Of a stretch of 64,000 nucleotides of DNA, positions 6,907 to 39,693 are shown one piece after another. The stretch is from Thermoanaerobaculia bacterium. GTDB lineage: Bacteria > Acidobacteriota > Thermoanaerobaculia > UBA5066. How positions within the stretch are numbered: position 1 is the first letter of the stretch; every line of letters begins with the position of its first letter. The position numbers and the translations under genes are program-made. The notes under the pieces were generated by a model. The model searched no databases and had not been told where the DNA came from. It worked only from the letters and a program-made list of their open reading frames with translations. The stretch is taken from the NCBI GenBank assembly GCA_963719225.1, contig CAVRAY010000001.1, positions 2,656,001 through 2,720,000 on the forward strand, read 5' to 3'.

Positions 6907-8350
6907 CTCGAACCTCCTTCACGAACGCCGCGATCTTCGCCGGGTCTTTGACTCCCGGCGCCGTCTCGACGCCCGACGAGACGTCCACGACGTCGGGTCT
7001 CACCTTCCTCACCGCGTTCGCCACGTTCCCGGGCTGCAGTCCGCCCGCGAGCACCACGGGTCTCGAGCGATCGATCCCTTCCAGGAGACTCCAGTCGAAG
7101 ACGCAGCCCGTGCCGCCTCCCGCTCCGGCGACGGACGTGTCGAAGTGGAGGGCATCGCCTTCGGCTTTGCTCGCCGAGGAGAGGTCGTCGCGGCCGACGC
7201 GAATGGTGTTCCAGAACGTGATGTCCGAAGAGAAGAATTCCTTAGAAGGTGAAAGAGCGGGGTTGGGCATTTGAACGACGTCCGGGCGGACAAGGTCGAC
7301 GATGCGCTGCACGTCCTCTTCCGTCGCCGTCTCGTCGAAAACCGCCACGACGCCCTTCACGCTGCCTTTCGCTTTCATTCGCAGAAGTCTCCCCTCTTCA
7401 GGCGTCAGTCGCCGCGGCGACCGCGGCGCGAAGACGAGGCCGATCCAGTCCACGCCCTGTTCCAGACAGGCATCCACGTCTTCCCCCCGCGTGATCCCGC
7501 AGATCTTGACCTCCGTCGCGTTCTCGCCGCGCAGCGCGCGCAGCGTCGCGGCGGGGTCCGTAGCCTTGAGAAGCGTCTCACCCACCAGAAAGGCACCATA
7601 GCCCGCGGCGGCGAGCGCCTCGACATCGTGCCGCGACCGGATGCCGCTCTCGGCCACGCGCGCGACCGACGCCGGAAGGAGCGCGCCGAGGCGCGCCATT
7701 CCGGCCAGGTCGACTTCGAAAGTCCTCAAGTCGCGTGAATTCACGCCGACGATCTCGGCGCCCGCGCCGAGCGCCCGCTCGATCTCCCCCTCGTCGTGCG
7801 CTTCCACGAGAACCGCGAGTGCGCGGGACCTCGCGGCCGCATGGAGCCGCCCGAGGGTGGCGTCATCGAGGGCCGCGACGATGAGAAGCACGGCGTCGGC
7901 GCCCAGAGCGGCCGCAAAGTCCAGCTGGATCTCGTCCACCACGAAGTCCTTCATGAGGACGGGCAGGCCCGACGCCGCCTTCGCGCGTGGCAGCCACGAG
8001 GGGTCGCCGCCGAAGAAATCCTGCTCGACGACGACGGACACCGCCGAGCCGCCGCCACGCCGGTAGGCGCGCGCGACGGTTTCGATGCGCGACGCGGCGT
8101 CGGGAAGGATCAACCCCGCGCTCGGCGAGCGGTGCTTGATTTCGGCGAGAAACACAGGAAGAGGAAGAGAAGAGATTTGCTTAGAAGGGGAAGAGAGGGA
8201 ACGCGCGAAGCCGACTCCGTCCGGCGGAGCAGCGGGCTGCGCTGCAGCGGCAGAGGCGCGCACCTGGGCACCCATCTTGGCGGTGAACTCCCCCGCCGCG
8301 ATGCGCCGCCGCTTTGCCGCGAGAATCTCGCTCAGAACCGATTCGCCCAC
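6899..8350 (-). CDS. trpCF: Bifunctional indole-3-glycerol-phosphate synthase / PRA isomerase (TrpC-TrpF fusion)
   Basis: [27 protein letters not shown], then [29 protein letters not shown]. Confidence 0.95.
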
Positions 8351-8375
8351 CCCTCTTACCCCTTCTAAGCAATCT

Positions 8376-9419
8376 TCAATCTTCTCTCTCGTCCCCTCGC
8401 GAGATCCGAATGAGATCTTCGAGAGCCGTCGCCGCTTTCCCGTCCTCGAGCGCGGCCTCGGCCCGCGCCACGCCTTCCCGGAAATCCGAGGCGATGCCCG
8501 CCACGACGAGCGCGGCGGAGGCGTTCATGAGCACGACGCTCCGCGCGTCGCGCCGGAAGCCGCCGAGGACGGCCCGCAGAATCTCCGCGTTCGTCACGGC
8601 GTCTCCGCCACGGAGCGCGTCGGGGCTGCCATCGTCGAGGCCGAAGTCCACCGGGCCGAGCTGCAGAAGCTCGACGTCCCCGCCGCGAACCTCGGCGGCG
8701 AAGGTGCGGCCGAAGGGCAGGAGCTCGTCCCCTCCCGTCTCGTGCGAAAAGACGAGTCCGTGCTCCGTCCCGAGCGCCGCGAGGGCGCCGGCGATCACCG
8801 GGACGCGCTCGGGATGATCGACGCCGACGATCTGACGTGTGACGCCGGCGGGATTCGAAAGAGGCCCGGCGAGGTTGAAGACGGTGCGCAGGCCCAGCTC
8901 GCGCCTGAGCGGACCGACCTTCTTCATCACGGGGTGATAGAGCGGCGCGAAGAAGAACGTGACGTTCGCGCGGGCGAGCGCCTCGGCGGCGAGCACGGGC
9001 GACATCTCGATGTCGACGCCGAGCGCCGCGAGCACGTCGGCCGAACCGCAGGCGGAGGAAACCGCGCGGTTGCCGTGCTTGGCGACCGGCGCGCCGGCTC
9101 CGGCGGCGACGAAAGCGGCGGCCGTCGAGACGTTGAACGTGCCGAGTGAATCGCCTCCGGTGCCGCAGACGTCGATCGCGCGCGCGGCCAGCGCGGCATC
9201 CACCGGAGGCCTCAGCGAGCGCGCCCGGAGGGCGTCCACGGCGCCCGCCACGGCCTCGACCGTCTCGCCCATGGCGGCCAGGGCCGAGAGAAGGCCTCCC
9301 GCGATCGCCGCCGGGATCTCCTCGTCGAGGAGCGCCGAGACGGCGCTCCTCGCGTCCTCGCGCGTCAGGCGCCTTCCACGCGTCACGGAATAAAGCGCGC
9401 GATGGGCCGCCGTCGTCAT
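8376..9419 (-). CDS. trpD: Anthranilate phosphoribosyltransferase
   Basis: DVCGTGGD, FNVST, AKHGNRAVSS, GSADVL, RTVFNLAGPLSNP; ATGA overlap with trpG. Confidence 0.96.
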   Translation of the reverse strand: MTTAAHRALYSVTRGRRLTREDARSAVSALLDEEIPAAIAGGLLSALAAMGETVEAVAGAVDALRARSLRPPVDAALAARAIDVCGTGGDSLGTFNVSTAAAFVAAGAGAPVAKHGNRAVSSACGSADVLAALGVDIEMSPVLAAEALARANVTFFFAPLYHPVMKKVGPLRRELGLRTVFNLAGPLSNPAGVTRQIVGVDHPERVPVIAGALAALGTEHGLVFSHETGGDELLPFGRTFAAEVRGGDVELLQLGPVDFGLDDGSPDALRGGDAVTNAEILRAVLGGFRRDARSVVLMNASAALVVAGIASDFREGVARAEAALEDGKAATALEDLIRISRGDERED

Positions 9420-9985
9420 GCGAGCCGCCCGGCGACGAAATTCTTCAGGAGACGCTCCCCCTGGGGCGTGAGGATCGACTCGGGATGGAACTGCACGCCC
9501 ACGAGCGGGAGTGTCCGGTGCGCCAGTCCCATCACGAGGCCGTCCGCGCTCGTCGCCGTGACGCGCAGCGCGGCGGGTACCGAATCCTTCTCGACGACGA
9601 GGGAGTGATAGCGCGTGGCCGTGAACGGGTTCTCGAGGCCTTCGAAGAGCCCTCTCCCGTCGTGCGCGATCTCGGAGGTCTTTCCGTGCATGAGGACGGG
9701 CGCCCGGGAGACCTTTCCGCCGAAGACGGCGCCCAGAGCCTGATGGCCGAGACACACGCCCAGGAGCGGGATGGTCTCGTTCCGGCGGAAGAGCTCGCAC
9801 GAGATCCCGGCATCCTCGGGGCGGCCCGGCCCCGGTGACACGACGAGCCGGTCGGGCTTCGCGGCGAGAACCTCGTCCACGGACAGGGCGTCGTTCCGCA
9901 CCACGCGGACGTCGTCGTCGAGGGTCGACAGAATCTGGACGAGGTTGTATGTGAAGGAATCGTAGTTGTCGATCACGAGGATCAT
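9416..9985 (-). CDS. trpG: Anthranilate synthase component II (glutamine amidotransferase)
   Basis: IDNYDSFTYNL, SPGPG, GVCLGHQ, RYHSL, QFHPES. Confidence 0.96.
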   Translation of the reverse strand: MILVIDNYDSFTYNLVQILSTLDDDVRVVRNDALSVDEVLAAKPDRLVVSPGPGRPEDAGISCELFRRNETIPLLGVCLGHQALGAVFGGKVSRAPVLMHGKTSEIAHDGRGLFEGLENPFTATRYHSLVVEKDSVPAALRVTATSADGLVMGLAHRTLPLVGVQFHPESILTPQGERLLKNFVAGRLA

Positions 9986-11364
9986 CGGTACGTCCCCGCT
10001 CTCTCCACGGCGCGCATGAGAGCGCGCGCCTTGTTCTCGCATTCGGTGGCCTCGGACTCTGGATCCGAGTCCGCGACGATCCCCGCCCCGGCCTGGATGT
10101 GCATCGTGCCGTTCGCCACGACCGCCGTTCGAATCGCGATCGCGACGTCGAGGTTGCCGGCGAAGTCGAGATAGCCCACGGCTCCCCCGTAGGCCCCCCG
10201 TCTCACGGGCTCGAGATCCTCGATGATCTCCATCGCGCGAATTTTCGGCGCCCCGGTCAGCGTGCCCGCCGGAAACGTGGCGGTCAGCGCATCGACGGCG
10301 CCCTTGTCGGGCGCGAGGACGCCCGTCACTCGCGACGCGATGTGCATGACGTGCGAGTAGCGCTCGACGTGGAAGAAGTCCTTGACCCGGATGCTGCCGG
10401 CCTTCGCGACCCGGCCGAGGTCGTTCCGGCCGAGGTCCACGAGCATCACGTGCTCGGCGCGCTCCTTCGGGTCGGCGACGAGCTCCCTCTCGAAGGCGAG
10501 GTCCTCCTCCCGCGTCGCCCCACGCGGCCGGGTCCCGGCGAGCGGAATCGTCTCGGCCGTCGACTCTCCCGCTGAGGCGGCCACGTGGACGAGACGCTCG
10601 GGGGACGCGCCGAAGATCGCGCCGTGAGGCGTTCTGAGGTAGTACTGGTAGGGCGAGGGACTGAGGGAGCGCAGGGCGCGATAGACCGCGAAGGAATCGC
10701 CCGTGAACGGCGCGGACCACCTCCGCGAGAGGACGACCTGGAAGACGTCCCCCGCGCGGATGTGCTCCTTCGCGCGCTCGACGGCGGACAAGAAGGACGG
10801 AAGAGGAAGAGATTCTTCGAATGAGAGAGAGGGGGACGGAGCCGGAGCCGTGGGCACGGGCGTCGCGGTGGCGCGGGCTTGAAGGTCCCGTAGCCTTTCG
10901 AAGGCTCTCTTGTCCTCGCCGGTTCCTTCCCCGGCGTGGGTGACGAAGAGAAGCCGGTGACGCACGTGATCGAACGCGATGACCGCGTCGAAGATCCCGA
11001 ACCAAGCGTCGGGCATCCCGATCGGGTCAGGCTTCGAGTCGGGCAGCCGCTCGAGCCGGCGCACCGCGTCGTAGCCCACGTAGCCGACGGCCCCGCCCGT
11101 GAAGGGAGGCAGGTCCTCGCCTCCCGCCGCCGTCACGTGGCGAGGAAGCGTCCGGAGCGCGTCGAAGGGATCGCTCGCCCGGCCCGAGATCTCGCCCGAC
11201 GGCGACGCGCCCAGGAACGACCAGCGCGCGACACGGTCTCCGCCCTCGACCGATTCGAGGAGGAAGCACGGCCCACCCCCGGAGAGGAGTCCACGCATCA
11301 ACGCGACCGGAGTCGTGAGATCCGCCGGCTGCTCGACGACGACCAGCTGCCCGGGCGCTTTCAC
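9982..11364 (-). CDS. trpE: Anthranilate synthase component I
   Basis: [47 protein letters not shown]. Confidence 0.96.
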
Positions 11365-12794
11365 GGCCTCTCTCGGCGCGGCGCCTTCCGGCGCTCGACG
11401 AGCTTCAGAGCGACCTCGCCCGGCGCGACGCCGCGCGCCGTCAGGAGAACGGCGAGATGGTAGAGCAGATCGGCCGCCTCGCCGGCGAGCGCTCCCGCGT
11501 CGCCGGTGACCGACGCGAGCGCCGTCTCGACGGCTTCCTCCCCCACTTTCTGGGCGATGCGCGGCACGCCGGCATCGAGGAGCTGATTCGTGTACGACCC
11601 GGCGACCGGCGACTCCTTCCGCGCGCGGACGACCGCGAAGAGAGCCGTGAGGTCGAGCGCGTCCGCGGATCCCGCATCCTTCCCGGCGACCCCCAGCGTC
11701 TCGACAGACGAGAAACACGAATCCGCCCCGGTATGGCAGGCCGGACCCGACGGACGAACGTCGTAGAGCACGGCGTCGTCGTCGCAGTCGAGCGAGATTC
11801 CGACGACGTGCTGCACGTTTCCGGACGTCTCCCCCTTCTTCCAGAGCTCCTTCCGCGATCGGCTGTAGAAGTGCGCCAGGCCGGTCTCCCGCGTCCTGGC
11901 GAGGGCCTCCGCGTTTGCCCAGGCGAGCGTGAGGACGTTGCCCGTCACGACGTCACGCATGATGACGGGGACGAGCCCGCTCGCGTCGTAGCGGGGCAGG
12001 AGAGTGCGCACGTGCGCCGGCGCGGGACGAACCGCGAGCCCGGCCCGGCGCATCGCTTCCTTGACCGCGCCTACCGTGAAGACGCGGTCGTGGAAAAGTG
12101 AGGCCGCGAGCACGGCGTCCGCGCCGCCGATGACGACGGCCTTTGCGAAATCGTCGAGCTGGCCGGCTCCCCCTGAAGCCACGATCGGAACCTCGACGGT
12201 CGCACGCACCGAACGGAGCATCTCGAGGTCGAACCCCGCCTGCGTTCCATCCGCGTCGACGGACGTCAGGAGGATCTCGCCCGCGCCCGCTGCGGCTGCC
12301 GCGGAGGCCCATCCCGTCACGGTCCGGTCGGTCGGACGGCGTCCCCCATGCGTCATCACGCGCATCACCGAGACGCCGCTCGCGTCGCGCAGACGCTTGC
12401 CGTCGATCGCGACGACGACGCATTGCGATCCGAATTGCCCGGCAAGCCTCGTGATGAGAGAGGGGTCTTCGACCGCGGCGGTGTTCACGGTCACCCGGTC
12501 GGCCCCGGCGCGGAGAAGCGCATCCGCGTCCTCGACGGACCGGACCCCTCCACCAACGGTGAACGGGATCGAGAGAGCTTCGGCCACGTGCGAGACGAGC
12601 TCCACGAGCGTGCCGCGCTTCTCGTGAGCGGCGCGGATGTCGAGGAATGCCAGCTCGTCGGCGCCTTCTGCCTCGTAGCGCACCGCGGCCTCGACCGGAT
12701 CGCCCGCGTCGCGGAGGCTTTCGAACGAGATGCCCTTGACGACGCGCCCGCCCGCGACGTCGAGGCAGGGGATGACGCGAACCGCGACCGTCAT
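11361..12794 (-). CDS. hisF-hisIE: HisF-HisI-HisE fusion (IGP synthase cyclase + PR-AMP cyclohydrolase + PR-ATP pyrophosphatase)
   Basis: RVIPCLDV...LLTSVDADG...ASGGAG (HisF); [23 protein letters not shown] (HisI); [14 protein letters not shown] (HisE), all in one frame. Confidence 0.93.
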
Positions 12795-13588
12795 GAAGAC
12801 CTCCCCTGGTCGCGGGCCGCCCTCAGCCGCGACACTGTCGTGGCGCCGGAATGAAGCGCGCGGCCGAGGATGGCGCCGCGAGGTCCGCCCGCGAGCGCGT
12901 GGTTCACCAGCTCGAGGTCTTCTTCGCCGCGCATGCCGCCCGACGCGAGGATCTCGCCTCCGAACACGCGGCGCACGGCGGACAGGAGCTCGAGATTCGG
13001 GCCGGTCATGGCCCCGTCCCGCGAAACGTCCGTGACGAGAAGAGCCGAGACGCCGAGATCCGCGAGCGAGCGGGCGGCGGAAACGGCGTCTCCCATTCCG
13101 GCATCCTCGGTCCAGCCACGCACCGTCGGACGCCCGTCCTTGCAGTCGAGAGCGACCACGATGCGGGACGACAAAGACGAAGAGGAAGAGGAAGAGGAAG
13201 AGGAAGATTTTCTTAGAAGGTGCGTGAGGGCTGCGCGGTCGAGCAGCGCAAGGCTGCCGATAACCGCGCGTGCCCCGTTCCCCCTTTCTAAGAAATCTTC
13301 AACAGCTGCGGCCGTACGCAGCCCTCCCCCGACCTGCACAGCGACCCCCGCAGCGTCCGAAACAGAAAGAATTTCTTCGATCTCCTGTTCGTTGCTGCCC
13401 GTCCCGAACGCCGCGTCGAGGTCCACGACGTGGATCCCGTCGGCGCCCTCGGAAGCGAATCGCTCCGCGGCCCGGGCGGGGGGCTCGTCGTAATACGTCA
13501 CCTCTTCGCGCTTGCCTTTCAGCAGCCGGACGACGTGGCCGCCCATGACGTCGATCGCGGGCCAGAGAGCGAGTCGCTCGTCGCTCAC
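12791..13588 (-). CDS. hisA: ProFAR isomerase HisA with poly-Ser insertion
   Basis: [38 protein letters not shown]. Confidence 0.95.
13179..13207. repeat. (GAAGAG) x about 4.8 tandem repeat encoding the Ser run in HisA
   Basis: gaagag gaagag gaagag gaagag gaaga, directly adjoining a TTCTTAGAAGG motif. Confidence 0.85.
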
Positions 13589-14214
13589 GCCGCGTCCTCT
13601 CTAAGAAAATTCGAAAGGAGGATGCGGCCGCTTTCCGACGACTTCTCCGGGTGGAACTGGCAGCCCCAGACGCTTCCCCGCTGCACGATGGCGGCGAATT
13701 CCCCGCCGTGGTCGCAGGCCGCCGCGACGTCCGCGGCGTCGACGCCCTCGGGCCTGAAGGAATGGACGAAGTAGACCCAGCTTCCGTCCGGCAGTCCCTC
13801 GACGAACCCGTCGGGGCGACGGGTCAGGAGCTGGTTCCAGCCCACGTGGGGCGTGCGGACGCGCGCGCCGAAGGGGCGGACGCGGCCCGGCACGAGCCCG
13901 AGACCCTTGTGCACTCCGTGCTCCTCGCTTTCCTCGAAGAGGAGCTGGAAGCCGAGGCACAGGCCGAGGAGCCGCCCTCCGCGCTTGACGGCGGCACGCA
14001 CGGCGGACTCGAGGCCGGTCTCGAGAAGGCGGCTCATCGCCGGTTCGAAGGCGGCGACGCCGGGAAGCACGAGCCGTCGGGCGGATGCCACGCGGTCGAG
14101 GTCGGCCGTGAAGTCCACCTCCGCGCCGAGGCGACGGAACGCCCGGATCACCGAGGCCGTGTTGCCGACCCCGTAGTCGACGAGCGTGACGGACGAGCCG
14201 GCGGGCGTCGTCAT
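13585..14214 (-). CDS. hisH: IGP synthase glutaminase subunit
   Basis: VDYGVGN, LPGV, GLCLGFQLL, PHVGWN, YFVHS, QFHPEKS. Confidence 0.96.
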   Translation of the reverse strand: MTTPAGSSVTLVDYGVGNTASVIRAFRRLGAEVDFTADLDRVASARRLVLPGVAAFEPAMSRLLETGLESAVRAAVKRGGRLLGLCLGFQLLFEESEEHGVHKGLGLVPGRVRPFGARVRTPHVGWNQLLTRRPDGFVEGLPDGSWVYFVHSFRPEGVDAADVAAACDHGGEFAAIVQRGSVWGCQFHPEKSSESGRILLSNFLREDAA

Positions 14215-14807
14215 GCCGTGAGCGTTCCTTTCGTCGAAGGCACGTCCGTGCCCGTGACCGCCATCGCCTGGCGCAGCGCGCGCGCCGCCGACTTGAAGAC
14301 CGCCTCGGCCGCGTGATGGCCGTTCTTCGCGCGGACGACGTCCACGTGAAGGTTGAACTTGCCGCGAAACGCGGCGGACTTCCAGAATTCCTCGACGAGC
14401 GCGAACGGAAAGTCCTTCGTGACGAGGAGGAGCTCCTTGTCGACCGGCGACTCGAAGACGATGTAGGGCCGGCCCGAAAGGTCGACGACGGAGCGCGCGA
14501 GCGCTTCGTCGAGGGGGACGAGGGCCGTCCCGAATCGTTCGATTCCCGCCCGCGAGCCGAGCGCCTGGTCGAGCGCCTCGCCGAACGCGAGGCCGACGTC
14601 CTCGACGGTGTGATGGGCGTCGATGTACACGTCCCCCGCCGCGCGCACCGTGAGGTCGACGCGCGCGTGCTTCGCGATCGTCTCGAGCATGTGCGACAGG
14701 AAGCCCACCGGCGTCTCCACGTCCGCCCGTCCGTCGCCGTCGAGAGCCAGGGCCAGGGAAATGGACGTCTCCTTCGTCTTCCGCTCGACCGTTCCGGACC
14801 GGCTCAT
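14211..14807 (-). CDS. hisB: Imidazoleglycerol-phosphate dehydratase
   Basis: Start ATG 14807; RKTKET, FLSHML, HHTVEDVG, PLDEAL, NGHH..EA.FK, PSTKG. Confidence 0.96.
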   Translation of the reverse strand: MSRSGTVERKTKETSISLALALDGDGRADVETPVGFLSHMLETIAKHARVDLTVRAAGDVYIDAHHTVEDVGLAFGEALDQALGSRAGIERFGTALVPLDEALARSVVDLSGRPYIVFESPVDKELLLVTKDFPFALVEEFWKSAAFRGKFNLHVDVVRAKNGHHAAEAVFKSAARALRQAMAVTGTDVPSTKGTLTA

Positions 14808-15870
14808 ATCACCTCCAGGAAGGACTCGAGGAAGAGATCGTTCTCGGCCTGTGACCCGATCGAGACCCGCAGCCGTCCGGGCGCAGCCGACGTCATGTCG
14901 CGGACGAGGATGCCCCGGTCGAGGAGGCCGCGGCGCACCCGCGGCGCATCGGCCCCCGGGGGCGTACGAAGAGGAAGTTGGAACGCGAGCTGGCGACGGC
15001 GGAGCCGGCAGCGCGAAGCGTCGCGGCGACCCGTTCACGTTCCGCCGCGATCCTCCTCACGTGCTCCCGCGAAACCTCCGGATGGGAGAGAACGGCGATG
15101 GCCAGCTCCTCGGCCGCGAGGTCCACGCTGAACGGCAGGATGGCCTTCTCGACCTCGCGGACGAGCGCGGGATCCGCGACCGCATATCCGATGCGAAAGC
15201 CCGCCGCCGCGTAGGCCTTCGAAAGGGTGCGGAAGACGACGAGGTTCGCGCGCGGGCCGACGAGGGGGAGCGCATCGTCCGCCGGCTCCGCGAAGTCCAC
15301 GTACGCCTGATCGAGAAGGACGACCCGGGCGGCGTCGAGGAGGCGCTCCAGGAAATCTTTCCCGACGACGCCGCCGGTCGGGTTGTTCGGCGAGCAGACG
15401 AGCGGAACGGCGCCCGGCTCCCGCGAGGCTTCGAGGAACGCGTCCTCGGCCAGCGCGAAGTCGGGTCCGGTGCGCGGCACCTCGGCGACACGCGAAGAGG
15501 CGATCGCGGCGATCTGCCGGTAGAGCGAGAACGTGGGCGTCGGGAGCACGAGGGTCCCTCCGCCGGCAAACACGGACACGGCGGCCAGGATCACCTCTCC
15601 CGAGCCGTTCCCGACGACGATCTCCTCCGGGCGTCGGCCGACCGCGTCCGCGATGGCCCGTTTCAGGCGCGGCGCTCCGAATTCCGGATAGCGGCCCCAC
15701 CTTTTCGCCGCGAGGCGCGCGAGGACCTCGGTGCGGATCTCCTCGGGCACGTCGAACGGCGACTCGTTGAAGTCCAGCTTCGCGCGGAGCGGCGGCGCGT
15801 CCTCGGGGACGAGGCGATAGGCCTCGAGCGCCCGGATCTCCTCGCGGATCGGCACGGTCCGGCGCGTCAT
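14804..15870 (-). CDS. hisC: Histidinol-phosphate aminotransferase, frameshifted near 14953-14962
   Basis: KLDFNESP, GNGS.E, SPNNPTG, DQAY, RTLSKAY, RIGY. The C-terminus GILVRD...LRVSIG...EN is in another frame and ends at a TGA overlapping the hisB ATG. Confidence 0.9.
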
Positions 15871-17273
15871 GGCGCCCTCCGTTCGAGCGCGGCCGCGTGC
15901 GCCGCGAGGCCTTCGAAGCGCGCGAGAGCGGCGGCCGGCCGCGCGAGCCGGCGCGCGGCGTTCGCCGTCGCCTTCACCGATCGGCCCCAGCGCCGGAAAT
16001 CGCGCACGGAGAGGCCCGAGAAGCTGCGCGCCGCGCCCCCGGTCGGGAGCACGTGGTTCGGACCGGCGAGGTAGTCACCGAGCGCGGTCGGTGTCGAAGA
16101 GCCGATGAAGAGGGCGCCTGCGGTCGGAAGAAGCTTGCCGCTGAATCTCTCCGCGGACTTCCCCATCAACTGCACGTGCTCTGCGGCGATCTGCGAGCCG
16201 GCGGAAGCAGCGAGAGATATTTCTTTGAAAATGAAGATCCGGCCGCGCCGGAACAGCGAGGCGCGCGCGGCGGCCGCATTCACCTTCAAGGAAAACGAAT
16301 CGAGGGCTCGCAATTGGGCCGAGACCGCGGCCCGTACTGCGGCGGCGAGCCTGCTTGAATTCGTAAACAGAAGACACATCGCGTCCGGATCGTGCTCGGC
16401 CTGTGCCAGAAGATCCGCCGCCACGAGGTCCGCGTCGGCATCGGCGGAAGCGACGATCAGGACTTCCGACGGACCCGCCGGCATGTCGACCGCCACGAGG
16501 CCCGACACGAGGTGCTTCGCCGCCGCTACGAAGCGGTTGCCGGGGCCCACGATCTTCGCGACACCACAGACGGAGACGAGCCCCGCGACTCCGTGAGCGC
16601 CCCCCGCGAGCAGCACCTCGTCGACACACAGCTCGCGCGCCGCCCACCGGAGCTCGGGACTCGCCTCCCAAGCGTTGGGCGGCGTCGCGACGACCACGCG
16701 CGGCACCCCCGCGACGCGCGCCGGCACGACGCCCATCAGGAGCGAAGACGGATAGAACGCACGGCCTCCCGGGACGTAGACGCCGACGGATTCGAGCGGC
16801 ACGGATTTCTCGACGAACGAGACGCCGAGGGAGTCCTTGAAAGAGAAGCCCGACGAAGACGATGAGAGCTGCTTGCGGTGATACGCCTCGATGCGGCGGC
16901 GGGCGAGGCGGAAGGCAGAAGCGAAAGACTGATCCACACGAGATGGCTTTTCAAGACACGGATCAATACAGATCTTCTTAGAAGGGTAATGGGGCCGCTC
17001 GCTTTGTCGCACCGCCGTCGTCGGTCCGTCACGCCGCTGCCCCTCTCCCCCTTTCATAGAAACCGTTCTCTTCGAACCGTGGGCGCGCGCCGGTTTGAGG
17101 TCGAAGCGCTCCACGTACTCCCGGAGCGCGGGTTCCCCTCTTCGCAGAACGTCCTCCACAACCGGCAGGATCTGCTTCAACGTGGAGAAGTCGGGCGCCG
17201 CGCCCCGCCGGCTCTTCAACAGCGTTTCCAGCTCCCGTCGCCCCTCGCGCGTCGACGCGTCGACGGTCTTCAT
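15867..17273 (-). CDS. hisD: Histidinol dehydrogenase with N-terminal insertion
   Basis: GVYVPGG, YPSS, KIVGPGN.FV, DMPAGPSE, LAQAEHD, GDYLAGPNHVLPT. Confidence 0.95.
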   Translation of the reverse strand: MKTVDASTREGRRELETLLKSRRGAAPDFSTLKQILPVVEDVLRRGEPALREYVERFDLKPARAHGSKRTVSMKGGEGQRRDGPTTAVRQSERPHYPSKKICIDPCLEKPSRVDQSFASAFRLARRRIEAYHRKQLSSSSSGFSFKDSLGVSFVEKSVPLESVGVYVPGGRAFYPSSLLMGVVPARVAGVPRVVVATPPNAWEASPELRWAARELCVDEVLLAGGAHGVAGLVSVCGVAKIVGPGNRFVAAAKHLVSGLVAVDMPAGPSEVLIVASADADADLVAADLLAQAEHDPDAMCLLFTNSSRLAAAVRAAVSAQLRALDSFSLKVNAAAARASLFRRGRIFIFKEISLAASAGSQIAAEHVQLMGKSAERFSGKLLPTAGALFIGSSTPTALGDYLAGPNHVLPTGGAARSFSGLSVRDFRRWGRSVKATANAARRLARPAAALARFEGLAAHAAALERRAP

Positions 17274-18913
17274 CACGACTTCCCGGTCCCCGCGCGCACG
17301 TTCGCGCGCAGGCGTTCGACGAACGCCGCGATCTCGGTCCGCCGCGCCACGAGCGCGCCACGCCCGAGGATGAGCGTCGCGCGGCTCGGAAGAATCGTCT
17401 CGATCTCGGCGAGTCCGTTCGCGGCCATCGTGGATCCCGACTCGATCAGGTCCACGACGACGTCCGTGAGCTTCAACGCGGCGGCGAGCTCCACGGAGCC
17501 CGCGAGAGGAACGATCTCGTGAGCGATCTTCCTCTCGTCGAAATAGCGGGCGGCGAGGCGGCGGTACTTCGTTCCCACGCGCACGGGCTGCCCGTCCGGT
17601 CTGAAAGTCTCCCCGGCCCTCCCGATGAGCGACAGTCGGCACGCTCCGAAGGGCAGCTCGACGGGCGACGTCACGTCCTCTCCGCTCTCGGCGACGCGGT
17701 CACTGCCCACGATGCCCAGATCGGCGCCTCCGTGCGCCACGTAGGTTGGCACGTCGTCGTCCTTGAGCAGAAGGAGCTCGAAAGCGCCGTCCGCCGCGGA
17801 AACGAGAAGACGCCTGCCGTCCGGGTCGTCGAACGCAGCGCCTGCCGCGCGGAGCACCGCGAGCGCCTGCGGCAGGAGCCTTCCCTTGCCCACGGCGATC
17901 CGGAGGGGTCGCGTTCCCCCGTCCGCGTCGGCGCCGTCGATCGCGGCGCCGAGCGCCTCGAGCCCGATGCAGAACCCGAGAGCGGGTGCGGCTGTTCCAA
18001 AGCGAGCGAGGAGGCCGTCGTACCGGCCGCCTCCGGCGATCGTACCCTCTCCGCCCGAGGCGTCCACGCTGAACGTGAGCCCCGTGTAATAGGGAGCCAA
18101 CGGGGTATCCGCCAGGTCCACGACGACCGGCAAGCCGGGCCTTGCGGTTTTCGCCACGGCGACGGCCCGCGCGAGCTCCGCGGCAGCGCCCGCGAGAACC
18201 GGCAGCCGGAAGAGTCCCGAGCCGGAATCGAAGCCGACGAGGAGAGCACGGGCAACTTCCGAGGCGGCCTCTTCGGTCGCGCCCGACCGGAAGAGCAGCG
18301 CTTCGAGCTGCGTCACGTGCCGCGCCCGCGCCGTCGCGGCAGCCTCGGTGAGGCCCGCGCCCCCTCCGCGCGCCAGAGCCGGCGCGACGGCGGCGAGCAA
18401 CCGTTCGAGAAGGCCCGCCCAGCCCAGCGTCAGCCTCAGGCGCTCGGCAGGAACGTCCCCGAGACACGAGAGCGCGAGGGCGAGCATCTCGCCGTCGACT
18501 TCCGGCCGTCCGTCGCCGTAGCGCTCCGCTCCCACCTGCGCGAACTCCCGCCGCCGCCCGACGCCCGTCTCTTCATCGCGCACGACGTCGCCCCTGTAGA
18601 ACAGCGACACGGGATCCGAGATCGCGCCGAGGCGCGGCGCGACGACGCGTGCCGCCATGGGCGTGAAGTCCGCCCGAAGAGAAAGAGTGTTGCCCTGCCG
18701 GTCGAGGAACCGGTAAACACGCTCGTCTCCCTCGGCCGTCACGCCGGCGTAGGGATCCGCGAAATCGAGGACCGGGAGGATGACCTCGCGCAGGCCGGCC
18801 TCCTGGAGCTTCCGAACGACGGAATCCTCCGCCTTGCGGCGCCGCTCGGCCGCGTCGAAGAGGAACGCCTGTACCCCGCGCGGGAGGTTGGGATCGGGAC
18901 GGTCGGACTTCAT
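17273..18913 (-). CDS. hisZ-hisG: HisZ-HisG(short) fusion ATP phosphoribosyltransferase
   Basis: HisRS-like N part (LRADFT, REFAQVGAE, YYTGLTF, AGGGRYD) fused to IAVGKGRL, DVPTYV, GSVELA, VDLIESGST; no HisG C-terminal regulatory domain. Confidence 0.9.
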   Translation of the reverse strand: MKSDRPDPNLPRGVQAFLFDAAERRRKAEDSVVRKLQEAGLREVILPVLDFADPYAGVTAEGDERVYRFLDRQGNTLSLRADFTPMAARVVAPRLGAISDPVSLFYRGDVVRDEETGVGRRREFAQVGAERYGDGRPEVDGEMLALALSCLGDVPAERLRLTLGWAGLLERLLAAVAPALARGGGAGLTEAAATARARHVTQLEALLFRSGATEEAASEVARALLVGFDSGSGLFRLPVLAGAAAELARAVAVAKTARPGLPVVVDLADTPLAPYYTGLTFSVDASGGEGTIAGGGRYDGLLARFGTAAPALGFCIGLEALGAAIDGADADGGTRPLRIAVGKGRLLPQALAVLRAAGAAFDDPDGRRLLVSAADGAFELLLLKDDDVPTYVAHGGADLGIVGSDRVAESGEDVTSPVELPFGACRLSLIGRAGETFRPDGQPVRVGTKYRRLAARYFDERKIAHEIVPLAGSVELAAALKLTDVVVDLIESGSTMAANGLAEIETILPSRATLILGRGALVARRTEIAAFVERLRANVRAGTGKS

Positions 18914-20490
18914 GCGGGAATCTCAGGATGGGGATGAAGCGACTCTTCGAAGAATTGGAAAGCCATCCGCAAGCGGGAAGGCAGGCGCTCGAGAAGCTCT
19001 CTTGGAGTCGTCCGCTTTCCCGTGAAAAGCGTTGCCTGGCCCGCGGCCTGGAGCAGGAGCAGCGTCTGCCCATCCACGACGCGCGCCCCGGCAGCGCGTG
19101 CCGCCTTCGCGAGCTCGGTGCCGCCCTCTCGGTAGGGCGCGTCGATGACGAGCATACCGGGGCGGAGGAGGCCCGGGTCGCACGGGAGGGGATCCCCCGC
19201 GCGGAGACCGAGGGAGGTGGCGTTGACGATGACACTCGCGGCGGGCCATGCCGCTTCGGACTTCTTCGAAAGCGCGCGCACGCCGGTTTCTCTGGCGAGG
19301 TCTTCGCCGCGCTCCTTGGTCCGGTTCGAGAGGAAGACCTCCCATCCCCTTTTTCTAAGAACATCCACCGCGACCCGAGCCGCACCACCAGCCCCGAAGA
19401 CGATTGCGACCCCCGCATTCGCTTTCTCTTTCCTTTTCTCCCTCAAAGGATCTTCAATCACGGCCTCGAAGGCATCGCGATCCGTGTTTGTCCCGCGCAG
19501 TCGGAGCGGCTGGCCCGGGGCGCTCGACCTGAGCAGCGTGTTGACCGCCTTCTCGCCGTCCTCGTCCGTGCCGGCGAGATGCGCGGCCTCCTCCTTGAAC
19601 GGGATGGTCACGGACGCGCCGGCGAGAGGAAGTCCGAGGCTGTCGAACGTCGCGACCAGCGGCTCGAGCTCCTCCGTTAGCGAGCGCATTGCGAACGGTA
19701 CGTAGAGCGAATCCTGACTGAGCGCCTCGAAGCTCGCGTTGTGGAGGGCGGGCGAGAGTGAGTGCGAGACGATGCCTCCCAGGAGTCCGAAGAGCCGGGA
19801 CACCTTTCGCCTCCGGCCGACGCCGTAGATCTCCGCCAGGTCGAGGGCGAGGAGCTGCCCCGGCGCCGTCCCGCGCCCGGGAAGGAGGGCGCCGTACGCG
19901 AGCGAAGCCCCGAGATACGGCGCGAGTGCGCGCGTGCAGATGCCGACCTCTCCCATGCCGAACGTCGAGAGGCGCCCATCCCGATGGGCGGCCTGGAGCT
20001 CGAGGAGACGGCGGGCATCGCCTGAGTCGTTCGCCGTCGCCACGACTTTCACGAAGCGAGCCTGCGTCGCGAGCATCCGGGCAACGAGGGTGCTCATGTC
20101 GGCAGGGATGCCCTCCGGGTCATGAAGAGAGAGAATTTTCTTAGAAGGGGAAATGCGGGCGGCCTCGTCCCCGCCGTCGCGGCGGAACTCCACGTCGCCG
20201 AGTTCAAACCCGGCGTCCAGAGCCTTCGAAATCAGTCTCTGGGCCTCCCCTGCCGGTCCCCGGAACGTGCCGCCTTCTGATGCGGATCGGACGGTCGCAA
20301 CGAGTGTTCTTCCTTCAAAGCACGCGCGAAGCGCGCCGAATTCGGGCTCTTCGGACATGGCGTCGAGGCGCAGCTCCAGCGCGACCGAGGGAGGCAGCTC
20401 GGCGAGAGCGGAACATGCCCCCAGCGCTTCGGCGTTCGAAGCCGGAGCCACCGAGACGACGAGAAGCGTGTTTTCCGCGGTCTGGGCCAA
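18910..20490 (-). CDS. aroDE: Type I dehydroquinase - shikimate dehydrogenase fusion (AroD-AroE)
   Basis: ELRLD, EGG, SLHD, GMG, APGQ then HSLSP, SVTIPFKE, AVNT, NTD, GAGGAAR. Probable TTG start at 20490 with GGAGG upstream. Confidence 0.88.
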   Translation of the reverse strand: MAQTAENTLLVVSVAPASNAEALGACSALAELPPSVALELRLDAMSEEPEFGALRACFEGRTLVATVRSASEGGTFRGPAGEAQRLISKALDAGFELGDVEFRRDGGDEAARISPSKKILSLHDPEGIPADMSTLVARMLATQARFVKVVATANDSGDARRLLELQAAHRDGRLSTFGMGEVGICTRALAPYLGASLAYGALLPGRGTAPGQLLALDLAEIYGVGRRRKVSRLFGLLGGIVSHSLSPALHNASFEALSQDSLYVPFAMRSLTEELEPLVATFDSLGLPLAGASVTIPFKEEAAHLAGTDEDGEKAVNTLLRSSAPGQPLRLRGTNTDRDAFEAVIEDPLREKRKEKANAGVAIVFGAGGAARVAVDVLRKRGWEVFLSNRTKERGEDLARETGVRALSKKSEAAWPAASVIVNATSLGLRAGDPLPCDPGLLRPGMLVIDAPYREGGTELAKAARAAGARVVDGQTLLLLQAAGQATLFTGKRTTPRELLERLPSRLRMAFQFFEESLHPHPEIPA

Positions 20491-20668: not shown

Positions 20669-22177
20669 TCAAGGCTTCCTCCTCCAACGCACGCCCTGGG
20701 GCGTGTCCTCGAGGACGATTCGCTTGCCGAGGAGCTCGTCGCGGATCGCGTCGGCGCCCTTGAAATCCCGGGCCTTCCGGGCCTGCCTTCGGGCCTCGAT
20801 GCGCTCCAGGATCCAGGTCTCGTCAAGGTCGATGGATTCGGAAGAGGATTTCTTGGAAGGTGAAGAGGGGACCGGCGCATCGGGAGCGGAAGCGGCCGAA
20901 CCCACCAGGATGCCGAAAACGTCGCCTGCGACCTCGCTCAAGAGACCTCGTGCGGCCGTCGCATCCGGCGCCGAAAGGTGCCCCGCTTCGAGATCCATGT
21001 TCGTCGCCTTGACGAATGAGAACAGCGCACCCAGGGCGGCGGCGGTGTTCAGATCGTCCTCGAGAGAGGAGAACACCGCGGCGCGCGCCGCCGTCACTCG
21101 CTCCGCGAAGCCCTCTCCCGCTGCCTCCGGCATATTCACCTTCGAAGAAATCTCCTCCTTTTCTCTTCTCCCCTCTCTCTCTCCCAGCCGCATGTCCAGC
21201 GATTCCAGTCGCTCGACCGCGGATGTCGCCGCCTTGAGCCCCTCGAGCGTGAAGTTCAGCTTCATGCGGTAGGGAACCGAGACGAGGAGATAGCGGATGG
21301 CGCGCGGCGAGAAGCCTTTCTCGAGGAGGTCGGGAAGCGTGTAGAAGTTCCCCTTGCTCTTCGACATCTTCTCGCCGTCCACGAGGAGGTGCTCGGCGTG
21401 GAGCCAGAGGTTGACGAACGTCTTCCCGGTCGCGCCTTCGCTCTGCGCGATCTCGTTCTCGTGGTGCGGAAAGATGTTGTCGACGGCGCCCGTGTGGATG
21501 TCGAAGGTCTCGCCGAGATACTTCATCGACATCGCGCTGCACTCGAGGTGCCAGCCGGGCCTCCCGCGGCCGAGCTCGGTCGTCCACGACGCGGACTCGG
21601 GCTCGCCTTCCTTCGCCGCTTTCCACACCGCGAAATCGCGGACGTCCTCCTTCTCGTACTCGTCGTCGGCGACGCGCGCTCCGCGTTTCACGGCCGAAAG
21701 GTCGATCTTCGAGAGCCTTCCGTAGGCCGGAAACGTCGCGATCCGGAACCAGAACGAGCCGTCGCTTTCGTACGTGTGTCCGCGGTCGGCGAGCTTCCGC
21801 ACGAGCGCGACCATCTCGGAGATGTGATCCGTGGCGCGAGGATAGAGCGCGGCCGGGACGACGCCGAGCGTGCCGAGGTCCTCGAAGAACGTCGCGATGT
21901 GCCCCGCCGTGAACTCGCGGAGCGGCAGCCCCGACTCCACGGCGCCACGGATCGTCTTGTCGTCGATGTCCGTGAGATTCATGATCTGGGTCGTCTCGAA
22001 AGAGAGAGCGCGGAACACGCGGCACATCACGTCCTCCCAGACGAACGTCCTGAGGTTGCCGATGTGCACGCGGTTGTAGACCGTCGGGCCGCAGGTGTAG
22101 AGCCCGACCTTCCCCTCTCGGACGGGTCTGAACTCCTCGACCGTGCGGGTCAGAGTGTTGAAGAGGCGCAGCGTCAC
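20669..22177 (-). CDS. cysS: Cysteinyl-tRNA synthetase
   Basis: YTCGPTVY, HIGN, TDIDDK, GRPGWHLECS, FPHHENE, KMSKS; GTG start 22177. Confidence 0.97.
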   Translation of the reverse strand: MTLRLFNTLTRTVEEFRPVREGKVGLYTCGPTVYNRVHIGNLRTFVWEDVMCRVFRALSFETTQIMNLTDIDDKTIRGAVESGLPLREFTAGHIATFFEDLGTLGVVPAALYPRATDHISEMVALVRKLADRGHTYESDGSFWFRIATFPAYGRLSKIDLSAVKRGARVADDEYEKEDVRDFAVWKAAKEGEPESASWTTELGRGRPGWHLECSAMSMKYLGETFDIHTGAVDNIFPHHENEIAQSEGATGKTFVNLWLHAEHLLVDGEKMSKSKGNFYTLPDLLEKGFSPRAIRYLLVSVPYRMKLNFTLEGLKAATSAVERLESLDMRLGEREGRREKEEISSKVNMPEAAGEGFAERVTAARAAVFSSLEDDLNTAAALGALFSFVKATNMDLEAGHLSAPDATAARGLLSEVAGDVFGILVGSAASAPDAPVPSSPSKKSSSESIDLDETWILERIEARRQARKARDFKGADAIRDELLGKRIVLEDTPQGVRWRRKP

Positions 22178-34772: not shown

Positions 34773-35255
34773 TTACCTCGCCGCGCCACCCTCGACGATT
34801 TCGACGAGGTGGCGGACCTTCTGGACCTGGCCCCGAACCGTCGGGGTGTCGGGGCGGACGACCTCGTGGCGGATGCGCCGAAGGCCGAGCCCGAAGAGAG
34901 TGTGTTTCTGGTCGACGGGCGCGCAGATGCCCGATTTGATCTGGCGAATACGGATTTGCTTCGGAGCGGCCGCTGCGGCGGCCGCAGGAGCCGCCGCCTT
35001 CGCGGCGGCCCGGGGTTGCTTAGAAGGGGAAGATGTCAGCGCCGCAGCACTCTCACCGGTCGCGCTTTCTGGGGCCGCCGCGTCGACCTGCGAAGGCACA
35101 TTCACCTTCGAAGAAACTTCGGACGATTCGGCCTTCTTCGCCGCAGCAGTCTTCAGCTCCGCCGGGCCGGCCTGCGCGGGGGTACTCACTTTCGAAGAAG
35201 TCTTCTTCTTCTCGGTCTTCCTCTCGATTCTGTCGGTCTTTTCCGTCTCGCTCAT
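34773..35255 (-). CDS. rpmD: 50S ribosomal protein L30 with about 100-aa low-complexity N-terminal extension
   Basis: C-terminal IRIRQIKS...TL.GLGLRRI...DTP.VRG...KVRHLV; ATG overlaps the rpsE stop. Confidence 0.88.
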
Positions 35256-36276: not shown

Positions 36277-36288
36277 GGTGCTCTTTCC

Positions 36289-36846: not shown

Positions 36847-36854
36847 GTCGCTCC

Positions 36855-37253: not shown

Positions 37254-37263
37254 CGTCTCCTCC

Positions 37264-37449
37264 TCACCACGACGCCTTCGTCACCCCGGGCACGTAGCCC
37301 GCGAGCGCGAGGTTCCGGAAGCAGATGCGGCACAGGCCGAACTTCCGCATGAACGCCCGCGGACGGCCGCAGCGCCTGCAGCGGTTTCGCTTGCGGATCG
37401 CGTATTTCAGTTTCGAGTTCGCCTTGATGATCGCGGCGCGACGAGCCAT
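37264..37449 (-). CDS. rpsZ: 30S ribosomal protein S14, Zn-binding type
   Basis: 61 aa; RCRRCGR...LCRICFR...GVTKASW. Confidence 0.96.
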
Positions 37450-37468
37450 GCCTGCGCTCCTTGACTTG

Positions 37469-38014
37469 CTATCGGCCGAACGGCATGCCGAGCTCTCGCA
37501 AGAGAACCCGGGCCCGGTCATCCGAGCCTGCCGTCGTGACGATGGTGACGTTGAGACCCTTGGACTTGTCGATCTTCGTGGGGTCGATTTCGGGAAAGAT
37601 GAGATGGTCCTTGACGCCGAGCGTGTAGTTGCCGCGCCCGTCGAACGCGCGCGTCGGCACGCCCCGGAAGTCGCGCACGCGCGGGAGCGCGACGTTCATG
37701 AGGCGGTCGAGGAACTCGTACATCCTGTCGCCCCGCAACGTCACGCGGCAGCCGATCGGCATGCCGGCGCGCAGCTTGAACGTGGCGATGGATTTCTTCG
37801 CACGCGTGACGACGGCACGCTGGCCGGCGATCTTCGTGAGCTCCTCGGCAGCCGCGTCGACGAGCTTCGCGTTCGTGATGGCCTCGCCGATCCCCATGTT
37901 GAGAACGACCTTTTCCAGCCTGGGAACGGCCATCGGGTTCGCGATCCCGAACTCCTTCTTGAGGACCGGGATGACGTCCTTCTTGTATCTGTCCTGGAGA
38001 CGTGCGGTTGTCAT
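37469..38014 (-). CDS. rplE: 50S ribosomal protein L5
   Basis: [21 protein letters not shown]. Confidence 0.97.
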
Positions 38015-38021
38015 GGCGTCC

Positions 38022-38387
38022 TCACTCGGCCGCCGGCCGGAGGGTGCCGATGGTGGCCCCGCTCTTCTTGGCGTAACGCACCCATTCGCCGCCCTCGGCA
38101 CGGATTCCCACGCGCGTCGGCTTGCCGCCCTCGGGGTCGACGAGCATGAGGTTCGACAGGGCGATCGGCGCCTCGCGCTCGAGGATGCCGCCCTTGATGT
38201 TCTTCTGGGGATTCGCGCGCGTGGCCCGCTTGATCTTGTTGACGCCTTCGACGACGGCGCGGCCCTTCTCGGGCAGCACCTTGAGGATCTTCCCGCGCGC
38301 TCCGCGGTCCTTCCCCGTCAGGACGATGACGACGTCGTCCTTGCGGATCCGGCGCTTCCCGGTGTACGTCGGCTGCCTTTTCTTCAT
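38022..38387 (-). CDS. rplX: 50S ribosomal protein L24
   Basis: GKDRG..G, VEGVN, EAPI..SN. Confidence 0.95.
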
Positions 38388-38388
38388 G

Positions 38389-38763
38389 TCAGATGACTTC
38401 CGGAGCCAGCGAGATGATCTTCATGAACTTCTTCTCGCGGAGCTCCCTGGCGACCGGCCCGAACACGCGAGTCCCGATCGGCTCCCTTTCGTTGTTGACG
38501 AGGACGGCGGCGTTCGTGTCGAACCTGATGTAGCTGCCGTCGCGGCGACGCTGCTCGCGCACCGTGCGCACGATGACGGCCTTGACGACCTTGCCCTTCT
38601 TGACCGGGTCGGGCGCGTCCGGGTTCGACTCCCTCACCGAGCAGGTGATGACGTCGCCGATGCGGCCGAAATCCCCGGTCGAGCCGCCCTGCACCTTGAT
38701 GCACGCCAGACGTCGGGCACCGGAGTTGTCGGCGACCTCGAGGATCGTCCCCATCTGGATCAC
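38389..38763 (-). CDS. rplN: 50S ribosomal protein L14
   Basis: [25 protein letters not shown]. Confidence 0.97.
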
Positions 38764-39170
38764 GATTCCCTCCCCGCCGGCTCGGACGTGCCCTTCGCGG
38801 GCGCCTTCTTCTCGGGCGCGCTCTTCGCCGAGCTTCTCGTCTCGCTGCCCGGGACCTCGGCCGTGTCGGAGACGAGGGCGCGGCCCTTCGTCACGATCGC
38901 GATCACGCGCCAGCGTTTTTTGGCCGACAGAGGCCGGGTTTCCTCGATCTGCACGGTGTCGCCGGGCTGCGCCTTGAGGACGCGGTCGTCCGCCAGGAAC
39001 CGCGCCGACTTCCGCTGGTAACGGCCGTAGCGCGTGTGCTTGACGAGGCGAGACACCTCGACGACCACGGTCTTCTCCATCTTGTTCGAGACGACGGTCC
39101 CGACCTTCCGGCTGCGCCGCGGCTCGACGGCCGTCGCGATTTCAGGGGTGCTGCTCATGGGCGTGCTCAC
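38760..39170 (-). CDS. rpsQ: 30S ribosomal protein S17 with C-terminal extension
   Basis: [20 protein letters not shown]. Confidence 0.94.
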
Positions 39171-39186
39171 TGCTTCCTGTTACGAA

Positions 39187-39693
39187 CTACTTCTTCTTGC
39201 TTTTCTTGCTGGGAGCGGACTTGGCCTTCGGAGGAGCGGCCGTCTTCCCCTTAGGTCCTGAAGATTTCTTAGAAGGGGCCTGAGCCTTCGCAGCCGCGCC
39301 GCCCGTCTTCGAGCCCGTCGCCGCAGCCGTCTTCTTCTTGTGGGCGGCCGCGCGCTTCTTCGCGCCTTTGCCCGTTGCCGCGGCGTGGGGCTTCGGTTTC
39401 GCCGTCCCCGCCGCGCTCTTCTCATTCGCAGAAATCTTCTCTTCGGTCCCCTCCGAAACCCCAGTCTCATGAGTCTCGGCGGCCGCAGCGGCCGCCGCCT
39501 CGGCCGCGCTCATGTGCTGCGCGGTCTTCAGGCGGGCGATGTCCTTGCGGAGCTCCTTGATCTTCATGGGATTCTCGAGCTGGCCCGTAGCCTTCTGGAG
39601 GCGGAGCGTGAAGAGGGACTGCGCCCACTCCTTCGCCTTGGCGGCCTTTTCCTCGGCGGACCAGTCGAGCATCGCCTGGATCTTCATCGTCAT
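39187..39693 (-). CDS. rpmC: 50S ribosomal protein L29 with about 105-aa Lys/Ala-rich tail
   Basis: [16 protein letters not shown]...RKDIARLKT, located between rplP and rpsQ. Confidence 0.9.

Follow-up and report, generated by a model that had tools for sequence, protein, structure and literature searches.

The stretch of DNA analysed here, which we call the window, is 64 kb long and spans C1:2,656,001–2,720,000 of the genome of an uncultured member of the Thermoanaerobaculia (Acidobacteriota), 4.75 Mb in size, of 68% GC and in two contigs, C1 and C2 (G000; 97% complete, 6% contaminated). On its minus strand lie an aro-his-trp operon, cysS, a ribosomal protein cluster and rpoBC. From 4880 to 20490 the window is a single string of overlapping aro-his-trp genes, with fusions of aroD–aroE, hisZ–hisG, trpC–trpF and, apparently, hisF–hisIE. 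Set into these genes are copies of a short asymmetric motif that come in convergent inverted pairs, and these pairs are the subject of this study. Genes were called across the genome using a purpose-made dicodon model, which returned 4,070 genes, and gene edges are approximate for that reason. A scan of the window with Rfam gave no match at the gathering score.

To describe the motif, we built a position weight matrix (PWM) genome-wide and iterated it until convergence. The whole motif is asymmetric and roughly 30 bp long, with the core TTTCTT(A/C)GAAGG; the matrix reads as a purine run, then (A/T)TTTCTT(A/C)GAA(G/A/T)G, then a second C-poor purine run. The core is almost palindromic, and directionality is set by its centre and flanks. 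Near-invariant positions are mixed with freely varying ones, a profile like that of a binding site. At a threshold of at least 14 bits the genome holds 809 matches, compared with about 24 expected from third-order Markov simulation (position counts below use 807 sites), and the top over-represented 8-mer of the genome is TTAGAAGG. The purine skew of the motif strand reaches about 150 bp outward, and the GC content of fourfold-degenerate sites falls from 0.89 to 0.82–0.83 within and directly outside pairs. Additional same-direction sites gather at 21–36 bp and at about 75–98 bp, which suggests local duplication and decay of sites. The literature that we searched, mostly open-access and without supplements, held no description of the motif. 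Viral contigs scanned for it gave one match, in a contig of 40% GC without a tblastn match to G000 proteins, which we take as chance.

An earlier note on this DNA had listed twelve pairs in the window, and eight of them proved solid, with both sites at 10 bits or more. In the trpF half of trpCF, a plus-strand site at 7230..7253 (26.0 bits; orthologous in relatives) faces a minus-strand site at 7372..7395 (18.6 bits) over 139 bp (centres 7243/7382). The pair of trpC joins a plus-strand site in the N-terminal part of the gene (8169..8192; 32.2 bits), where the gene strand encodes PSKQISS, to a minus-strand site at the trpD/trpC junction (8357..8380; 31.3 bits) 185 bp away (8182/8367); it is kept in 19 loci at spacings of 163–228 bp, and one of its sites shifts place and frame. 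In hisA, the plus-strand site at 13201..13224 (26.0 bits) has an outer (GAAGAG)n flank that encodes poly-Ser, and the minus-strand site lies at 13280..13303 (29.0 bits; 13214/13290); both sites were found in 16 loci, always with a spacing of 76 bp. Two pairs belong to hisD, one at 16212..16235 (plus; 24.8 bits) and 16279..16302 (minus; 10.3 bits), 64 bp apart (16225/16289), and the other in the start region at 16966..16989 (plus; 31.4 bits) and 17047..17070 (minus; 15.2 bits), 78 bp apart (16979/17057). The pair of cysS, at 20841..20864 (plus; 26.5 bits) and 21135..21158 (minus; 23.7 bits), has a spacing of 291 bp (20854/21145). Two ribosomal proteins carry the remainder. The N-terminal extension of L30 has a plus-strand site at 35008..35031 (25.5 bits), its minus-strand partner at 35101..35124 (19.2 bits; 90 bp; 35021/35111) and a third, minus-strand site 84 bp outside at 35185..35208 (19.9 bits; centre 35195), and the C-terminal tail of L29 holds both 39257..39280 (plus; 20.0 bits) and 39419..39442 (minus; 22.8 bits), 159 bp apart (39270/39429).

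The other four listed pairs fared less well. In two of them one partner is weak: the plus-strand site of trpE at 10804..10827 (19.8 bits), which relatives keep, mostly without a partner of at least 8 bits, has a possible partner of only 1.6 bits on the minus strand (10891..10914; centre 10901), and the minus-strand site of aroD–aroE at 19347..19370 (16.1 bits) has one of 4.8 bits on the plus strand (19253..19276; centre 19266), together with a third, minus-strand site 89 bp outside (19436..19459; 10.6 bits). The remaining two are unsupported, as the proposed partners at 13377 and 20318 score −8.0 and −1.2 bits; this leaves a minus-strand site at the end of hisH (13593..13616; 15.3 bits) and a plus-strand site in aroD–aroE (20129..20152; 34.2 bits) on their own. 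A further weak pair, 16835/16950, was likewise unsupported on rescoring. The unpaired site that the note had placed near 54300 is strong and indeed without a partner; it lies on the plus strand just beyond the rpoC stop (54291..54314; 25.9 bits; centre 54304).

Convergent pairing holds genome-wide and far beyond chance. Neighbouring sites no more than 300 bp apart are arranged as 250 convergent (+/−) and 13 divergent (−/+) pairs, with 32 +/+ and 31 −/− pairs, so that neighbour orientation is strongly non-random. When we took the 665 sites of at least 18 bits, an opposite-strand partner of at least 10 bits was found on the convergent side of 490 and on the divergent side of 26, and a partner of the same threshold was found at only 3.2% of random positions, which answers the concern that degenerate partners might turn up anywhere. 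We obtained 307 raw pairs, or 274 after de-duplication. Spacing in the de-duplicated set has 10th, 50th and 90th percentiles of 69, 110 and 212 bp and lies mostly between 65 and 260 bp; it is continuous, with a sharp lower edge near 65 bp, a long tail and a spike at 93 bp that comes from a family of kinase paralogues. The helical periodicity of about 10.5 bp that had been proposed for checking was absent: neither the raw nor the de-duplicated pairs showed a period of 9.5–12 bp. A weak signal at 7.5–8.5 bp (P about 0.01, uncorrected) is unexplained and was left unused.

The sites are spread over coding and intergenic DNA alike. Predicted genes hold 594 of the 807 and intergenic DNA the other 213, an intergenic enrichment (26% of sites compared with 10% of bases). 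All six reading frames are in use, sense and antisense sites are about equal in number (296 and 298), and no preference for any position within genes was seen in G000. Of the raw pairs, 206 of 307 sit inside one predicted gene, and 14 are placed between divergently transcribed genes or straddle them. Their 307 inner sequences form 274 clusters, those in common being paralogues, and the spacers are unrelated local sequence. The view that the pairs are not the ends of an inserted element is supported. The companion claim, that the DNA between partners is ordinary in-frame host gene, stands for hisA, trpF and the kinases; it does not stand for the 101 pairs that are not inside a single predicted gene, for the trpC pair, which encloses an insert relative to motif-free relatives, or for the L29 pair, which lies in a tail absent from both motif-free relatives examined.

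We next consider how the motif is distributed among related genomes. Every one of the 28 other genomes of the genus has the strict pair pattern, as do 7 of 8 in one sister genus; it was found in none of 26 genomes from eight other genera of the family. A class-wide draw gave pairs in 15 of 251 genomes, every one in the two motif-bearing genera, and one exact 13-mer is present in 24 of 24 genomes compared with 0 of 16. The class-wide and 13-mer counts, like the comparison of ParB paralogues described below, include two unpublished outgroup genomes (G025 and G030), without which the tallies still hold. The sister genus is sparser, with 15 sites compared with 112 in the 400 kb around the terminus, indicating that the motif family expanded in this genus; within the genus, site numbers differ about tenfold between genomes. 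In trpCF, hisA, hisD and trpE, sites occur at matching alignment columns throughout the clade. Motif-free relatives have neither these sites nor, in their proteins, the poly-Ser inserts. The cost to proteins is visible in codon usage too, as 72 of the 282 TTA codons of the genome lie 8 bp or less from a site, in positions that make up 0.35% of the genome. The L29 tail that holds the pair, 90–100 residues long, is present in three of three motif-bearing relatives and absent from two motif-free ones. L30 is less uniform in this respect, as some extensions occur without sites. We conclude that the motif pairs are real, clade-specific and under selection. In the window, L29 (39187–39693) is 168 amino acids long, with a Lys/Ala-rich tail confined to motif-bearing genera among those examined, and L30 (34773–35255) is 160 amino acids long, with an N-terminal extension of variable length.

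The pairs are centred on the replication terminus, which is a new result of this analysis and gives real support to the idea, raised in the earlier note, that they serve genome organization. A dif-like site, conserved in relatives, lies at C1:2,037,574, at the peak of codon-position skew, and is flanked by two motif pairs; the origin markers dnaA, parB and a parS palindrome lie at C2:326–335 kb. We treated C1 and C2 as one circle on the basis of skew, with C2 reversed, which gives arms of 2.36 and 2.39 Mb. In steps of 400 kb outward from dif, density falls from 27.8 through 23.6, 21.4, 11.0 and 9.1 to 8.0 sites per 100 kb, and the paired fraction and score are constant with distance. In a Poisson model of 3,823 genes with sites masked, distance from dif was the sole predictor (z = −7.9; 0.7 for an expression proxy and −0.1 for GC at fourfold sites); an apparent tie of sites to low GC at third codon positions and to low expression was gone once sites were masked. 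The gradient is present in intergenic DNA alone (78 compared with 16 sites per 100 kb). Fitting 453 site clusters with a free centre placed the peak at dif (−100 to +150 kb within 2 log-likelihood units), and a step fit returned a symmetric domain from −0.96 to +1.05 Mb, with 14.7 clusters per 100 kb inside it and 5.7 outside; density within 1 Mb of dif is about 2.5-fold higher than beyond. As controls we used nine other patterns, five of them shuffled or reversed versions of the PWM and four made of AT or purine words; their ratios of 0.32–1.01 were flat or reversed, compared with 2.41 for the motif. Replichore polarity is absent (273 leading and 252 lagging; 391 of the 807 sites point to dif).

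Comparison of the 100 kb near dif with the 100 kb near dnaA gave 18 and 6 sites in one relative (G003) and 34 and 3 in another (G013); across the relatives, the terminus bias is clear in two, weak in one and unclear in one. Paralogues within G000 offer a further view. Nine tandem Ser/Thr kinase paralogues (C1:2,295,900–2,319,800) each carry a pair spaced by 93 bp, and this subfamily keeps the pair in 13 copies within 1 Mb of dif and in 2 beyond. In a single case, a copy near the origin (C2:144,564), the sites have decayed to 3.8 and 4.0 bits and the peptides are similar.

Within a pair, the two sites resemble each other only marginally more, if at all, than shuffled partners do. Over 26 columns their identity is 14.35, compared with 14.41 ± 0.12 when partners are shuffled, and perfect inverted runs of at least 14 bp occur in 5 of the 274 de-duplicated pairs, compared with 7.6 ± 2.6. 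The private variants that had been noticed between some partners in the window, a perfect 14-bp inverted repeat and a match at 17 of 18 positions, are present; they are ordinary, however, because such runs are no commoner than in shuffled pairs. With the motif excluded, perfect repeats show an excess of z about 2 at 8 bp and none at 11 bp or more, and position +1 is unlike between partners in 57% of pairs. On the transcribed strand of the 206 intragenic pairs, differences of the G·U type (568) and A·C type (559) are about as frequent, and duplex energies of true partners equal those of shuffled ones. Folding of 70 intragenic pairs gave core pairing probabilities of 0.51 for mRNA, 0.53 for antisense and 0.53 for swapped arms; pairing of the arms is a mere by-product of the motif consensus. 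We saw no consistent covariation at five orthologous pairs with 13–19 loci each, and four core positions that had looked concordant in G000 were not replicated in a test (P = 0.37). With partners at most marginally matched and no G·U bias, both RNA stems and inversion sites, two of the roles first put forward for the pairs, are disfavoured. Among the sequencing runs listed, none was an RNA run, and the best share was 0.19.

We propose that the pairs are putative two-part binding sites on double-stranded DNA for a terminus-organizing protein, which would compact, position or segregate the half of the chromosome around the terminus. We give this reading an even chance. The protein would read the motif as double-stranded DNA, since nothing hangs on strand, frame or partner complementarity. 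Two bound copies would need to face each other at least 65 bp apart. Rigid short loops, as in repressor loops, are expected to be helically phased; no phasing was seen, and contact would more plausibly involve a bridge that is flexible, or bound copies that slide or spread to meet each other. Of the roles suggested at the outset, bipartite protein-binding sites survive, and looping or wrapping that is rigid and helically phased finds no support. The purpose would be organization of the terminus half. Selection, rather than copying of an element, would have written the sites into permissive places in genes, and short local duplications would shift them.

Several observations weigh against this proposal. 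The gradient is just 2.5- to 3.5-fold, and the origin half still has 8–11 sites per 100 kb; the circle formed by C1 and C2 is inferred from skew, although the gradient holds in both orientations of C2. Sites flank dif in many relatives, but none were found beside it in 4 of 22 other genus loci that include it. Sampled 20-kb windows of one relative (G057) hold 5.5 sites within 1 Mb of dif and 3.9 beyond (Spearman −0.16, P = 0.49); among the forward exact matches listed for that genome, density is raised about 2.3-fold within 0.7 Mb of dif. In another (G019), sites stay frequent nearly up to parB, only about 740 kb from dif. Gene order is common to the relatives, so position is not separated from gene identity and the relatives are not independent. 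Partners show a slight excess of similarity in the core in G000 (9.53 of 12, compared with 9.43 ± 0.04; P = 0.025) and over the whole motif in 66 pairs from four relatives (15.05 compared with 14.58 of 26; P = 0.04), and the arms of about half the 70 pairs that were folded are able to pair (core above 0.5). Finally, no motif-binding protein was found among the candidates examined. In G019, the origin-type parB and the dif-linked parB lie at C2:106,815 and C2:847,467, about 740 kb apart, a closeness that reflects either a rearrangement or a mis-join.

Like DNA uptake sequences (DUS/USS), the pairs could instead be products of molecular drive: pair-bearing DNA would be preferentially taken up, protected or recombined, letting pairs build up in permissive places with no chromosomal role. 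We think this rather unlikely. Hundreds of copies in core genes, in every frame and reshaping peptides, are what DUS/USS show (PMC2817400, PMC2397512), and ComEC is present; site numbers, moreover, vary widely within the genus, and less conserved core genes near the terminus are denser (49.6 compared with 14–23 per 100 kb; 86 genes). The same accounts describe DUS/USS as more evenly spread than random, with a single copy being enough and inverted pairs acting as close intergenic terminators, whereas the motif forms pairs 65–300 bp apart that are mostly intragenic and peak at dif, and ComEC, in 57 of 63 family genomes, does not track it. A role as generic hairpin arms in RNA or single-stranded DNA, C-poor purine against G-poor pyrimidine and read as a duplex in processing, stability or lagging-strand events, is unlikely. 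It would suit the convergent geometry, which always places the purine arm first, 5′ to the pyrimidine one, the predicted pairing in about half of the folded pairs, the slight within-pair excess in some tests and a separate family of convergent intergenic 7-nt-repeat arms in an outgroup genome (G028). The mRNA strand, however, has no excess of G·U over A·C, true, antisense and swapped arms fold alike, covariation and the four core positions gave nothing consistent, position +1 commonly differs and a role in mRNA leaves the centring on the terminus unexplained.

Local regulation by a clade-specific transcription factor that loops or blocks DNA, with the terminus bias reflecting where target operons lie, is improbable. 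Sites crowd the aro-his-trp operon, are sparse in the adjoining ribosomal operon and are enriched in intergenic DNA, as regulatory sites might be; against this, they show no positional preference within genes and no tie to the expression proxy, and the density peak sits on dif itself. We regard templated writing as similarly improbable: here the same tail would be added to both 3′ ends of a short native fragment, or at opposite-strand nicks, and the product re-integrated, more commonly where replication ends. The pyrimidine strand does face outward on either side of a pair and carries repeats of variable length 3′-terminally, several adjacent codons are unlike those of motif-free relatives at both hisA sites, and the spacing has its sharp lower edge and long tail; yet site degeneracy is position-specific and fitted to each reading frame, partners are not copies of one template, no enzyme was found, and the Y1 transposase is absent from G000 and from 24 of 28 genus genomes. 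Least probable are site-specific inversion or excision sites (intragenic invertons). Orientation is inverted and some relatives' contigs differ over pair regions, for example by a 109-bp skip starting at 16989. Partners, however, share no core sequence beyond chance, at every aligned locus that bears the motif the inner segments of orthologues retain their orientation and frame, essential genes (cysS, L29 and L30) would break on inversion and, as weak data, 15 of 124 joints examined in relatives' contigs included none that changed strand.

One candidate for the proposed terminus-organizing protein, a weak one, is encoded beside dif. A second parA–parB operon adjoins the site (C1:2,037,564–2,039,524), with lptFG on the opposite side, and the literature searched held no description of such a terminus-linked ParAB pair. 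In a more specific version of our proposal, which we consider quite unlikely, the pairs over 2 Mb would be a distributed address code for the terminus that this ParA–ParB paralogue reads, as a second, terminus-directed partition system with a pull on the DNA sequence strong enough to have rewritten enzymes and added the L29 tail. The paralogue of ParB (C1:2,037,865–2,038,620) has an intact CTPase signature and altered DNA-contact residues (R173, E178, A179, R184, R201 and L204, counted from the GKSR motif after the numbering available in PMC7383237). A179 and R184 are common to both motif-bearing genera, and each also occurs in motif-free genomes. The arrangement is order-wide, in all three families and including motif-free genera, and the paralogue is for this reason only a weak candidate for the motif reader. 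Downstream of parB in two outgroup genomes (loci L108 and L110), a second partial dif-like word near dif is possibly the trace of an integrated element.

Other candidate readers were rejected. A fourth HU/IHF paralogue is present in 59 of 63 family genomes and so does not match the motif distribution; ComEC likewise does not follow it. A four-helix-bundle protein has a single gene with no flanking sites in 30 loci, no GxxExxY protein (PF13366) occurs in G000, and the Y1 transposase (PF01797) is absent from G000 and present in 4 of 28 genus genomes. A search by synteny for gene gains near the terminus, over 400 kb per outgroup, gave nothing convincing. The lone four-helix-bundle gene of G000 (C1:776,365–776,730) is divergent, vertically kept and without repeat flanks, and lies upstream of an mdh-like gene. 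While Y1 transposases (IS200/RAYT-type) are thus nearly missing from this genus, two related genera do have them: 17 of 17 genomes in one, which is motif-free, and 7 of 8 in the other.

The motif pairs fit no known family. KOPS/SRS-type replichore-polar motifs are asymmetric purine-rich words linked to the terminus; the motif, unlike them, is non-polar, and G000 has other, G-rich words that are polar. In another known arrangement, repeat arms flank four-helix-bundle or GxxExxY genes, whereas no such gene is enclosed by the pairs here, and unlike invertons the partners have no identical core. Judged against the published accounts consulted, the pairs work most like matS and look most like DUS/USS and REPINs, and miss a defining feature of each. 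They resemble the matS/MatP system of enterobacteria in being a short motif dense around the terminus, and the organizer protein is the function that we propose here; matS, as described in PMC6907758, is 13 bp long, with 23 sites at about one per 35 kb that are Ter-exclusive and single, unlike some 800 asymmetric sites in facing, seemingly obligate pairs 65–300 bp apart along a shallow gradient over about 2 Mb. Like DUS/USS, as characterized in PMC2817400 and PMC2397512, they run to hundreds of non-palindromic copies that take either orientation, occupy permissive places of core genes in several frames and alter the proteome; they differ from the even spread and single copies of those elements in being wide, mostly intragenic, terminus-centred pairs that add residues. 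REPINs too have two inverted copies tens of bases apart, number hundreds per genome and are lineage-specific, and the account in PMC3337134 has them as extragenic and limited to a few discrete spacings, with a spacer that forms a hairpin and with a RAYT transposase; our sites lie largely in genes, with continuous spacing, unrelated spacers and no Y1 transposase in G000. Finally, ATTTC in the left part of the motif resembles the NBS half-site TATTTCCC, and the second parAB abuts dif, which recalls ParB and Noc. Their sites, parS and NBS, are given in PMC7383237 as contiguous 16-bp palindromes, and the paralogue departs at N178 and R204, which by that account ParB and Noc share.

If the proposal holds, a paired, orientation-dependent cis-element would represent a new way for bacteria to shape their chromosome. 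To our knowledge, sequence-specific terminus organizers are known from few lineages. The sharp clade boundary, defined motif, geometry and positional prediction make this reading readily testable. The pairs also illustrate clearly how a signal at the DNA level can overwrite essential proteins, with rare codons, poly-Ser inserts and a new ribosomal-protein tail. Were they selfishly driven instead, drive on spaced pairs would be new too.

We searched the 400 kb around the terminus of two motif-free genomes de novo for other paired motifs, and in one of them (G082) found none. In G028, which is motif-free and belongs to another family, convergent intergenic pairs of degenerate 7-nt repeats lie 175–250 bp apart, at C1:434,246–434,503, C1:639,830–640,040 and C1:669,541–669,791. 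The replichore-polar words of G000 include GGGGGGGG (146 compared with 10), GGGGGAG (584 compared with 227) and TTGTGTT (88 compared with 8), which are candidates for the FtsK-orienting signal of this lineage.

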